From the IMG/VR virus record IMGVR_UViG_3300029305_004606, positions 96,001 to 160,000 of that record: a DNA stretch of 64,000 nucleotides; one strand, written 5' to 3'. Source of the DNA: a virus. Its lineage: Duplodnaviria; Caudoviricetes. A program made the translations under genes and the position numbers. Every line of letters starts with the position of its first letter. Position 1 is the first letter of the stretch. The notes beneath the pieces are model-generated. The model worked only from the letters and a program-made list of their open reading frames with translations, ran no database searches and was not told the DNA's origin. Below, in pieces: positions 23,674-25,803 of the stretch.

Positions 23674-23686
23674 ATTATATATTATA
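23674..23686 (+). promoter_or_regulatory. Early-type promoter (ATTATATATTATA)
   Basis: Exact motif; followed by an ORF-less region and a terminator. Confidence 0.65.
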
Positions 23687-23689
23687 ATA

Positions 23690-23848
23690 CTGATACATAA
23701 GAGATTCTTTTGATTTACATATGATTTTATTCATAAATACATAGGATATTATATAATATCAAAATCTAGTTAATTGTTTTAAATAAACTTATATAAAACA
23801 CTAGATAGGTCCTGGGCGAAAGCCCAGGACTACTTTATTTATTTTTTG
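23690..23848 (+). ncRNA. Candidate early small RNA
   Basis: Early promoter, no RBS or ORF, ATCTAG..TGTTTT/AAAACA-CTAGAT hairpin, GAAA-tetraloop terminator. Confidence 0.4.
23809..23848 (+). terminator. Intrinsic terminator with GAAA tetraloop
   Basis: GTCCTGGGC-GAAA-GCCCAGGAC followed by a T-rich tract. Confidence 0.85.
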
Positions 23849-23866: not shown

Positions 23867-23910
23867 TTTTTGATATAAAACAAATGATACTTTTTATGGA
23901 GGTATAATCT

Positions 23911-25212
23911 ATGGATTACACAAGAGAACAATTGATCAGTATGTTACCTAGATTTGATAGGTATAACAGAGAGAAACAAACAAAAAATATAGTTGATCTT
24001 TTATCTGATAAAAATTTGTTAGATCTATATGAATTAGATAAATTAGATACTACAAGTGGTAGACGATTTTATAAGAATTATCTTTCTCATGCTAAGAAAC
24101 AATATTCTTGTTATATGAAAGATGATATTTGGTCTGGAGAAATTGATGAAAATAAAATGAGAGAAATCTTTGAAACTTATTATGTTTCTGTATTAAAAGA
24201 TTTTATCAAAATGAGACCTACATATATCTATGGTAGAGAAACAGAAGGAACACATCAGGTATTCCAAGATAGAAAAATGTATGATGATATTCTTGAATAT
24301 ATACAGAATTTATATATGAAATTTTTATCAAAAGAAAATAAAATTTGGTATATATTTATTTGTAATAATGATCCAAAGGGATTAGCTGCATGTTTCCTCA
24401 ATAAATACGGCGATGTAAAAATGGAATTATTTGATAATATGATGAATAAGATCAAAGAAGATTTAAGGTATATTAATACTATTCCTTTTATTGCAAAATG
24501 TCCAGTTAGTATATATCGTCAAGAAAATAGATTTAGAGAAGAATATTCTAGATATATAAGAGAAACAGGATTAAGAGAAATGTATGCAGAAATCAATAAA
24601 ACTAAAAATAAACAGATAAAATCTACAGATGCTATAAAAGTAATTGAAGAATTTGTTAATTCTGAAGAATATGATGCTGTAAAATATTTCTATAATGATA
24701 AATATCCTGATAGAAATTACCATAATGATGTGGAACTTGTAAAAGAGTTTGATCCTGATTTGCATGTAAGATATATAGAAAAGACTGATACTACTCATAG
24801 AACTAGATATGCTATTTTATCAGCAACAGGAAGAAAGCTTAAGGATGCTATTATTAAATCCAAATATAAATTATCATTATTAGAATTCTTTAATATTTAT
24901 AATCCTGGTACTATTGCTAATTTTTTAAATTATAAAAATAATGTAATCAAGAATCTACAACCAGATGTGTATAATGTTCTTAATTCATATCTTCGTAAAC
25001 TTAGTTTTAGACAAATCGAAATAAAAGAAATTATGGAGATGAAAGTTATTATTAATGGTAGAGAATTAGCTAATGAAGAAAAAGAAATGATACTCAAGTA
25101 TATCAAAGATAACAAATTACCTTTCATGTTTAGACTTTATAATGAAATTTATAGAGAATATATAAAAGGTAATCTTGATCTTAATAAACCATTTAAGGAG
25201 GATACTTTATAA
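23911..25212 (+). CDS. Hypothetical early protein
   Basis: 433-aa ORF, GGAGGT RBS. Confidence 0.8.
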   Translation: MDYTREQLISMLPRFDRYNREKQTKNIVDLLSDKNLLDLYELDKLDTTSGRRFYKNYLSHAKKQYSCYMKDDIWSGEIDENKMREIFETYYVSVLKDFIKMRPTYIYGRETEGTHQVFQDRKMYDDILEYIQNLYMKFLSKENKIWYIFICNNDPKGLAACFLNKYGDVKMELFDNMMNKIKEDLRYINTIPFIAKCPVSIYRQENRFREEYSRYIRETGLREMYAEINKTKNKQIKSTDAIKVIEEFVNSEEYDAVKYFYNDKYPDRNYHNDVELVKEFDPDLHVRYIEKTDTTHRTRYAILSATGRKLKDAIIKSKYKLSLLEFFNIYNPGTIANFLNYKNNVIKNLQPDVYNVLNSYLRKLSFRQIEIKEIMEMKVIINGRELANEEKEMILKYIKDNKLPFMFRLYNEIYREYIKGNLDLNKPFKEDTL

Positions 25213-25472
25213 TGACTATGGTAAAAACAGAAATTCATGGAGCAATTGTAGACAAATTTGTTATCAGACCTATCAATGGTCCTAGTGATTCTATTGTTAT
25301 GGAATCAATTGGTGATAAGAAAGAACCTGCAGTTTTTAATACTGAAGAGGATGTACAAAAGTATTTAGATTTTATGGATATTGACCAGGAAGAAAGAGCT
25401 AATATAAAGATAGATTGTACTAATATTAGTTATTTCAATAACGGTGGTATTTTGGTAGAATTTGAAGAGTAA
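25212..25472 (+). CDS. Small hypothetical protein
   Basis: AAGGAGG RBS, TAATG stop/start coupling. Confidence 0.75.
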   Translation: MTMVKTEIHGAIVDKFVIRPINGPSDSIVMESIGDKKEPAVFNTEEDVQKYLDFMDIDQEERANIKIDCTNISYFNNGGILVEFEE

Positions 25473-25500
25473 GTTTCAATCTACCTTGATACATAAATAT

Positions 25501-25660
25501 AACGGTGGATAGTACTCATGAAAATTTGTGCTAAGGCTCCCCGGCTGATGTATACAAATTCCATTGACAAAAATTAAATAAAATACCATAATAGTGCAAA
25601 CAGTTTTAGCAGAGTGATTTCCACCGTTGTCACTCTGCTAGAGCTAATATTTTATTTTTT
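25501..25660 (+). ncRNA. Candidate structured small RNA
   Basis: TACA-N6-TAAC promoter at 25490-25503; 5' AACGGTGGA complementary to TCCACCGTT in the loop of the 3' terminator hairpin (25607-25640); internal AATTTGTG/TACAAATT hairpin with CTCCCC loop. Confidence 0.55.
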
Positions 25661-25692: not shown

Positions 25693-25730
25693 CTAGTAGA
25701 CTTTATCGTCTACTAGAGTTTTTATTTTGT
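25693..25730 (+). terminator. Intrinsic terminator
   Basis: CTAGTAGAC/GTCTACTAG stem followed by a T-tract. Confidence 0.65.
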
Positions 25731-25751: not shown

Positions 25752-25765
25752 AACTTTATATTAAT
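25752..25765 (+). promoter_or_regulatory. Late-type promoter (AACT-TTATAT-TAAT)
   Basis: Motif upstream of the metalloprotease gene. Confidence 0.6.
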
Positions 25766-25803
25766 ATCAGTGACTAATTTAATTAGTCGGAAGGAGAGTA
25801 ATT

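Follow-up and report, generated by a model that had tools for sequence, protein, structure and literature searches.

A candidate non-coding RNA module, putatively derived from a decayed gene cassette, upstream of an M48-like protease gene of an AR9-like jumbo phage

In an uncultured AR9-like jumbo phage of 201 kb, an 86-aa gene and the gene of an M48-like protein are separated by a spacer of 331 nt, and a stretch of 190 bases within this spacer can be described as a modest candidate RNA. Judged from sequence comparison, and with slightly better than even confidence, we regard this element as a lineage-restricted, non-coding RNA module of the plus strand, which arose from a wrecked and inverted copy of an early small-ORF cassette. 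A model proposed in a preliminary description, in which the element is a conformational switch that controls read-through into the protease operon, does not hold. Should such an RNA exist, AR9-like jumbo phages would gain one of their very few candidates for a regulatory RNA, and a decayed gene cassette would have given rise to a non-coding RNA. More useful, as by-products of the analysis, are the transcription signals of the phage: an early consensus of the AR9 type, a late consensus with a degenerate position -11 and a third class of promoter-like motifs. To these comes a mobile early cassette in which the ribosome-binding site and the terminator vary together.

According to the favoured reading, an inverted cassette copy would have landed in an early operon, past the stop codon and in front of the operon's original terminator, and would then have decayed. 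Transcripts of the early operon, which encodes proteins of 433 and 86 aa, would cross the core of the remnant and stop at the terminator 25602-45. A late RNA of ~155 nt probably has its start at position 25501 as well; its promoter would be a TACA-N6-TA motif that the element inherited from the strand opposite the terminator loop of the cassette. The 5' box of this late RNA would be paired either locally, in a helix termed P0, or with the terminator loop, and its pairing would shield the 5' end, while loops rich in pyrimidines would stay accessible. The complementarity of 9 nt between the 5' box and the terminator loop would most simply be the leftover of a family trait of the cassettes.

The phage and the locus

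The window, i.e., the whole stretch of DNA analysed here (64,000 nucleotides), comprises bases 96,001-160,000 of a source record of 200,990 bp, which has inverted terminal repeats and a G+C content of 31%. A multisubunit RNA polymerase beta-like protein of the phage is encoded just 5' of the element. The core of the motif AATTATATATTAT-N6-G, which is the early-promoter consensus of the Bacillus phage AR9 (PMC5312081), has 21 matches in the phage, 18 of which are intergenic. Transcription of AR9 is accomplished by viral RNA polymerases only (PMC5312081). No match to GenBank phages was obtained with megablast, blastn or tblastn using both flanking proteins, and scans of IMG/VR for related loci found none. 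Searches of PHROGs and Pfam assigned no function to the cassette protein or to the upstream genes.

Two sites with the early-promoter motif, at ~23676 and ~23856, serve the 433-aa/86-aa operon. The sole terminator between these promoters and position 25602 is found at 23808-31, upstream of the second promoter. Since early transcripts must cross the core and meet the terminator 25602-45 first, the element serves at least as a (structured) 3' UTR. The region 23676-23840 is an ORF-less early unit in its own right, which consists of an early promoter and, ~130 nt further on, a terminator with a GAAA loop; the second early promoter, past this unit, serves the 433-aa gene.

Downstream of the element, a second terminator and the promoter-like motif ACTTTATATTAATA precede the M48-like gene (Table 1), and both are also present in relatives that are devoid of the element. 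The ACTTTATATTAATA motif belongs to a third promoter-like class, which resembles the early consensus yet differs from it. Its core, TTTATATTAAT, has eight matches in the genome, five of which are intergenic, and sites of this class are located in the window at 25753-25766 and 17539 (minus strand) and at genome positions 6767, 181569 and 195943 (minus strand).

Table 1. Features of the locus (window coordinates) and copies of the cassette in related sequences (coordinates of the sequence named)
Feature	Position	Strand	Remarks
86-aa gene	25212..25472	+	final gene of the two-gene 433-aa/86-aa operon; ORF list
Imperfect hairpin, 7 bp	25479..25511	.	fold; reverse complement of a cassette terminator
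TACA-N6-TA late-promoter-like motif	25490..25501	+	predicted start A25501; kept in 5/5 variants
5' box AACGGTGGA	25501..25509	+	SD-like; 3' arm of the relic hairpin; invariant in 5 variants
Local helix P0 (25503-09 with 25560-66)	25503..25566	+	closes the hairpin domain; MFE folds of window, L010 and L024
19-codon ORF behind the SD-like box	25519..25578	+	not conserved
Long irregular hairpin	25523..25560	+	inner 4-bp helix 25535-38/25543-46; apical pyrimidine tetraloop 25539-42
Sigma-70-like TTGACA-17-CATAAT	25564..25592	+	11/12 match; probably fortuitous
A-rich variable linker	25569..25601	+	66-94% identity, least conserved part
Intrinsic terminator hairpin	25602..25645	+	17 bp (25602-18/25629-45); 10-nt loop 25619-28 holding the 5'-box complement
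U-rich terminator tail	25648..25660	+	sequence
Second terminator	25693..25716	+	homologous to the lone terminator here in element-free relatives (vs L003, L004, L006, L010)
Promoter-like motif ACTTTATATTAATA of the M48-like gene	25753..25766	+	conserved in all relatives, element present or absent
M48-like zinc protease gene, 439 aa	25804..27123	+	HEIGH at residue 149; Pfam PF01435, E=2.5e-4; 212 homologues
Cassette copy, L003	2255..2645	+	
Cassette copies, L002, L008 and L010	spacers	-	
Cassette copy, L019	2376..2781		
Cassette copy, L021	2376..2759		
Cassette copy, L022	2376..2756		

Distribution of the element

The 212 homologues of the M48-like protein were taken from a large protein collection, and the surrounding contigs were fetched; assembled relatives stem from ERZ1767614, ERZ1767610, SRR6425774, SRR24653830 and ERZ28436078. 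The element was found in the window and in L002, L008/L009, L010 and L024, and it is absent from L003, L004 and L006. It is thus limited to the closest clade, whose M48-like proteins are 94-95% identical (L002, L008/L009, L010), and to the 712-bp sequence L024. In L004 and L006 (82-83% identical protein), the spacer has a length of 136-142 nt and contains a single terminator together with the motif ACTTTATATTAA(A)TA. L003 (89% identical protein) possesses a terminator and a cassette on the plus strand at this site, which is composed of an early promoter, a structured leader, an ORF of 56 aa and a terminator. In the closest clade, a cassette of this kind lies behind the element, this time on the minus strand; in the window's own genome, no cassette adjoins the element. 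The site is hypervariable, with inserts of 136 to 681 nt. A pattern scan for further copies gave no match in IMG/VR and none in the GTDB genomes, and the eight matches in JGI metagenomes were all chance hits in unrelated coding DNA; a looser pattern yielded 15 matches in IMG/VR, none of which was confirmed by model R1.

Structure, conservation and coding capacity

All sequence features listed in the preliminary description were found at the coordinates given there. The exact complement of AACGGTGGA is located at 25620-25628 within the loop of the terminator hairpin. The terminator stem first described, which corresponds to 25607-17/25630-40, extends to 17 bp, and the hairpin formed by AATTTGTG and TACAAATT corresponds to 25523-30/25553-60, with CTCCCC inside it at 25537-42. 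As far as its sequence can tell, the hairpin 25602-45 was shown to behave as an intrinsic terminator of the plus strand: a stem of 17 bp is followed by a U-run on the transcribed strand, and RNAalifold identified seven changed pairs, two by double and five by single changes, all of which remain paired, and no pair is broken; in L010/L024, an alignment gap coincides with one terminal pair. The sequence of the terminator loop is conserved while the stem changes. The internal hairpin is likewise present and conserved with compatible changes, which are G.U to A-U and U.G to C-G in the RNAalifold structure (25523-60) and G-C to A-U and A-U to G-C in the register first described. The G.U and U.G pairs are compatible with the plus strand only, and a structured RNA of the plus strand is plausible.

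Other details of the earlier description were confirmed in part. CTCCCC is present, but the CCCC loop is not conserved, as the L010 lineage has UCCU at this position. Both alternative pairings exist, and TAGTAC/GTGCTA is part of the MFE fold, but the second one (25525-33 with 25592-600) is lost in L008 and L010. No tRNA or tmRNA was detected in the stretch. No Rfam family reached its gathering threshold; the best sub-threshold hits had 15-20 bits, compared with the 37-160 bits needed. The families without a match include the hammerhead ribozyme, despite a CUGAUG...GAAA resemblance.

Within the close trio, the identity of the core of the element (25501-25568) amounts to 97-100%, and it is 91% in the comparison with L010. 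In the flanking genes and the neighbouring cassette ORF, third codon positions reach 64-82%. Six mismatches in 66 positions were counted between the core and that of L010, where ~16 would be expected at the silent-site rate; the alignments thus show that the core has changed less than silent codon positions. The element is carried by only two independent lineages, so that all covariation stems from one split. A recent exchange of the module could explain part of the high conservation; the cassettes of L002 and L008 are 97% identical at third codon positions. The indels of the L010 lineage (+9, -2, +1 and +4 nt) are located at helix junctions and do not come in multiples of three. The 19-codon ORF has lost its ATG in L010/L024, and its C-terminus differs in L002/L008. 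The indels and the lost ATG together indicate that the element does not code for a protein.

The element as a whole folds into a structure that is more stable than those of shuffled sequences (z -3.5), mostly owing to the terminator. Exact inverted repeats of 9 nt with a gap of 30-150 nt occur 129 times in the window and ~97 times in dinucleotide shuffles. If at least five G/C are required, the AACGGTGGA pair is the only such repeat in the window, and the mean of the shuffles is 1.27; the complementarity alone is therefore not beyond chance in 64 kb. The pair gains weight from the related variants, in all four of which the two 9-mers are unchanged.

Candidate late promoter motif

The preliminary description postulated a late-type promoter in front of the element. 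In AR9, late promoters follow the consensus AACA-N6-TA/G (PMC5312081), and a change at -11 abolishes late transcription (PMC5449584). AR9 late promoters also drive antisense transcripts, and its operons end at predicted terminators (PMC5312081). In the phage studied here, NACA-N6-TA sites peak 35-39 nt before start codons genome-wide, with 16 sites compared with 3.8 expected; four of them are TACA sites, and any of the bases A, C, G and T can stand at -11 in sites at the canonical distance. The phage's late polymerase may read ACA alone. The TACA-N6-TA at 25490 matches ACA-N6-TA and has a T at -11. Since the NACA peak includes any base at -11, the motif at 25490-25501 is a legitimate candidate late promoter for this phage. 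The postulated promoter therefore fits the late consensus of the phage and is kept in five of five variants, but its T at -11 is unlike AR9. TACA-N6-TA is a short motif of low information, for which several hundred matches are expected genome-wide.

A further recurrent motif, AACAAATGATACT, is found at 23883 and 31570 of the window and at ~8 other intergenic sites, close upstream of start codons. It is often located just behind an early promoter and also occurs between the ORF and the terminator of cassettes. AACAAATGATACT contains AACA, but the spacing to TA is 5 nt.

Probable origin from a mobile cassette

The cassette is mobile: related phages have it at various loci and in either orientation, with other sites in L019, L021 and L022. 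It consists of an early promoter, a hairpin leader, an ORF of 55-58 aa with the conserved sequence ...ANQPNKAIWLT...DTYMSLIDPNYP... and a terminator. The phage's own genome contains one copy, at 168,490-168,905, which lies outside the window. On the minus strand, the left end of the element (25479-25520) aligns to cassette 3' ends, including the CCACC-type stem and the loop sequence of the family. The alignment to the cassette terminators (L003) has a z of 7.5, which was reached by 0 of 200 shuffles. The same loop sequence is present in the cassette terminator of the own genome, and the left end also matches L021 and L022. These alignments show the left end to be the reverse complement of a cassette terminator and, by this reading, the relic of a minus-strand copy. 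Thus, the proposed promoter and the 5' box would be the opposite strand of a former minus-strand terminator. The remainder of the element may also be derived from the cassette, with weaker evidence: the second-best match of model R1 in the own genome is the antisense of the 5' part of the own cassette (E 0.015), and the collinear blocks of element and cassette have a z of about 3. This weak homology of the right half counts against the favoured reading, as does the fact that, with no adjacent cassette in the window's own genome, any pairing partner would be remote.

In each cassette, 6-11 nt of the ribosome-binding/start region are the complement of the 5' arm of that cassette's terminator. 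Own-pair matches of at least 7 nt were found in six of eight cassettes, with four different, lineage-specific boxes; cross-pairs between unrelated cassette lineages share 3-6 nt. The match between box and arm could be a long-range interaction in the mRNA or a footprint of cassette movement. Read from the other strand, the 9-mer pair of the element has the same arrangement as that of the cassettes, and it is probably an inherited trait of the cassette family. In three variants, the complementarity comprises 11 nt and reaches 2 nt upstream of the predicted start, which suggests ancestry at the DNA level and fits it better than selection on an RNA helix.

ACA-N6-TA also occurs on the opposite strand of most of the cassette terminator loops inspected, though the loop sequences vary by lineage. 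The loops inspected were those of the own genome (~168,870-168,885, minus strand), L021, L022, L019, L002 and L003, the last of which has a 7-nt spacer. These sites suggest possible late antisense promoters within terminator loops.

Alternative explanations

The preliminary description proposed a late small RNA that starts at 25501, forms a pseudoknot between its 5' end and its own terminator loop and acts as a switch to tune read-through into the M48-like operon. The complementarity is indeed conserved among homologues, as neither 9-mer varies between the window and the four related variants, five sequences in total, and the pair hence shows no covariation. The helix would consist of nine Watson-Crick pairs with -13.7 to -15.2 kcal/mol, which is enough to compete with the nested fold. 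The nested MFE is -41.0 kcal/mol, and -37.2 kcal/mol if box and loop are kept free; as freeing both costs 3.8 kcal/mol and the helix provides -13.7, the pseudoknot is energetically possible. The conservation of the loop sequence in a changing stem and the match of the promoter-like motif to the phage consensus also argue for this model. However, the 5' box has two candidate partners, the terminator loop and the local 7-bp helix with 25560-66, a segment which is transcribed 60 nt before the loop, so that P0 forms first during transcription. Both strands of P0 are invariant, too, and with all three strands invariant, comparative evidence cannot choose between P0 and the loop pairing. The inherited cassette trait, with a match that extends past the predicted start in three variants, further weakens the claim of an end-to-loop pseudoknot. 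The switch is contradicted by the position of the complement. Known attenuators compete for the terminator stem. In the element, no alternative pairing competes with an arm of the terminator stem, and the complement is confined to the loop 25619-28; pairing would therefore not prevent the terminator hairpin, although nine of ten loop bases would pair, which needs the top of the stem to be opened. Moreover, the M48-like gene is preceded by the second terminator and by its own conserved promoter motif, which is kept in element-free relatives. The element thus appears not to gate transcription into the M48-like gene, and we consider the complete model of small RNA, pseudoknot and switch to be quite improbable. 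A more serious competitor, which we nevertheless hold to be doubtful, is that the terminator alone matters and that the rest is a decaying cassette remnant that serves as a spacer. Slightly more distant relatives without the element manage with one terminator, the site is hypervariable in insert length, the core contains four indels and no Rfam family matches. Neutral decay is difficult to reconcile with only six mismatches in 66 core positions, with hairpin changes that are compatible with pairing and with the location of the indels at helix junctions.

Two further explanations concern parts of the element. A tiny late gene, consisting of the SD-like GGTGGA and 19 codons from an ATG at 25519, would have a geometry like that of real late genes with short leaders (e.g., the site at genome position 20473), and one difference from L002/L008 is synonymous. 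We give it very little credence, since start codon and reading frame are gone in L010/L024, the length of the C-terminus differs in each variant and the cassette protein is not similar. No tblastn similarity between the cassette protein and the element was found, and the idea that the ORF is a truncated homologue of the cassette protein was rejected for this reason and for the start lost in L010. Alternatively, a host sigma-70 promoter (25564-25592) could make an RNA of ~55 nt that corresponds to the terminator hairpin; with 11 of 12 matching positions, it is the best site in the 5.5 kb scanned. In relatives, the spacer is 18-19 nt long and the -10 degraded, the -10-like hexamer lies within the weak alignment to the cassette ribosome-binding region and the -35 in a block aligned to the first codons, and AR9-type phages use their own polymerases (PMC5312081), which makes this explanation equally far-fetched. 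Finally, the match of 5' box and loop might be the remnant or the re-use of a built-in shut-off device of the cassette, and the element might be a trans-acting antisense small RNA, a reading that we regard as unlikely. The device would consist of a ribosome-binding region that matches its own terminator arm with lineage-specific covariation and of a late ACA-N6-TA promoter on the opposite strand within the terminator loop. From this promoter, an antisense RNA synthesized by the late polymerase would begin with a mimic of the gene's ribosome-binding site, and the dead copy would have been kept as an antisense RNA against the surviving cassette. In an RNAduplex scan of translation-initiation regions, the cassette ranked 11th of 190, in an output that consisted mainly of long spurious duplexes. 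The idea that the terminator loop co-evolves with the ribosome-binding sites of the cassettes was rejected, as the loop is invariant while the sites change. The derivation of a non-coding plus-strand module from a decayed cassette remains the reading that we favour.

Comparison with known systems

With intrinsic terminators and 3' UTR-derived small RNAs, the element shares a GC-containing stem of 17 bp, a U-run and an upstream A-tract, and, like structured 3' UTRs, it is located directly after the last gene of an operon. It differs from intrinsic terminators in its unusually large (10-12 nt) and sequence-conserved loop and in the presence of a second terminator 50 nt further on. Attenuators and riboswitches also possess an upstream segment that is complementary to part of a terminator element. 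In the element, however, it is the loop that is complementary, Rfam gave no aptamer and the gene has its own promoter behind another terminator.

In Firmicutes, the pyrimidine-rich apical loops of RsaE/RoxS and of the RNAIII terminator hairpin can pair with purine-rich ribosome-binding sites. The element resembles these small RNAs with C-rich loops in its pyrimidine-rich apical loops, which could pair with such sites as well and one of which is in the terminator hairpin. Unlike RsaE/RoxS-type RNAs, it has no Rfam match, its apical loop comprises 4 nt and changes from CCCC to UCCU, and the loop does not co-evolve with cassette ribosome-binding sites. A likeness to type I toxin-antitoxin systems is given in L002, L008 and L010, where the element is convergent with an ORF of 57-58 aa and the terminators abut; however, the small protein is not hydrophobic and the transcripts need not overlap. 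An assignment to this class was rejected, as the protein is hydrophilic, the cassette is found alone in L003, L019, L021 and L022, and the element occurs without an adjacent cassette in the window.

The closest parallel for the proposed promoter is provided by the late promoters of AR9, which are recognized by the nvRNAP. Both have the ACA-N6-TA geometry and a start at A, which is a predicted one in the element, and the AR9 early consensus is also present in the phage (PMC5312081, PMC5449584). The two differ at position -11, which is essential in AR9, whereas it is a T in the element and degenerate genome-wide in the phage described here.
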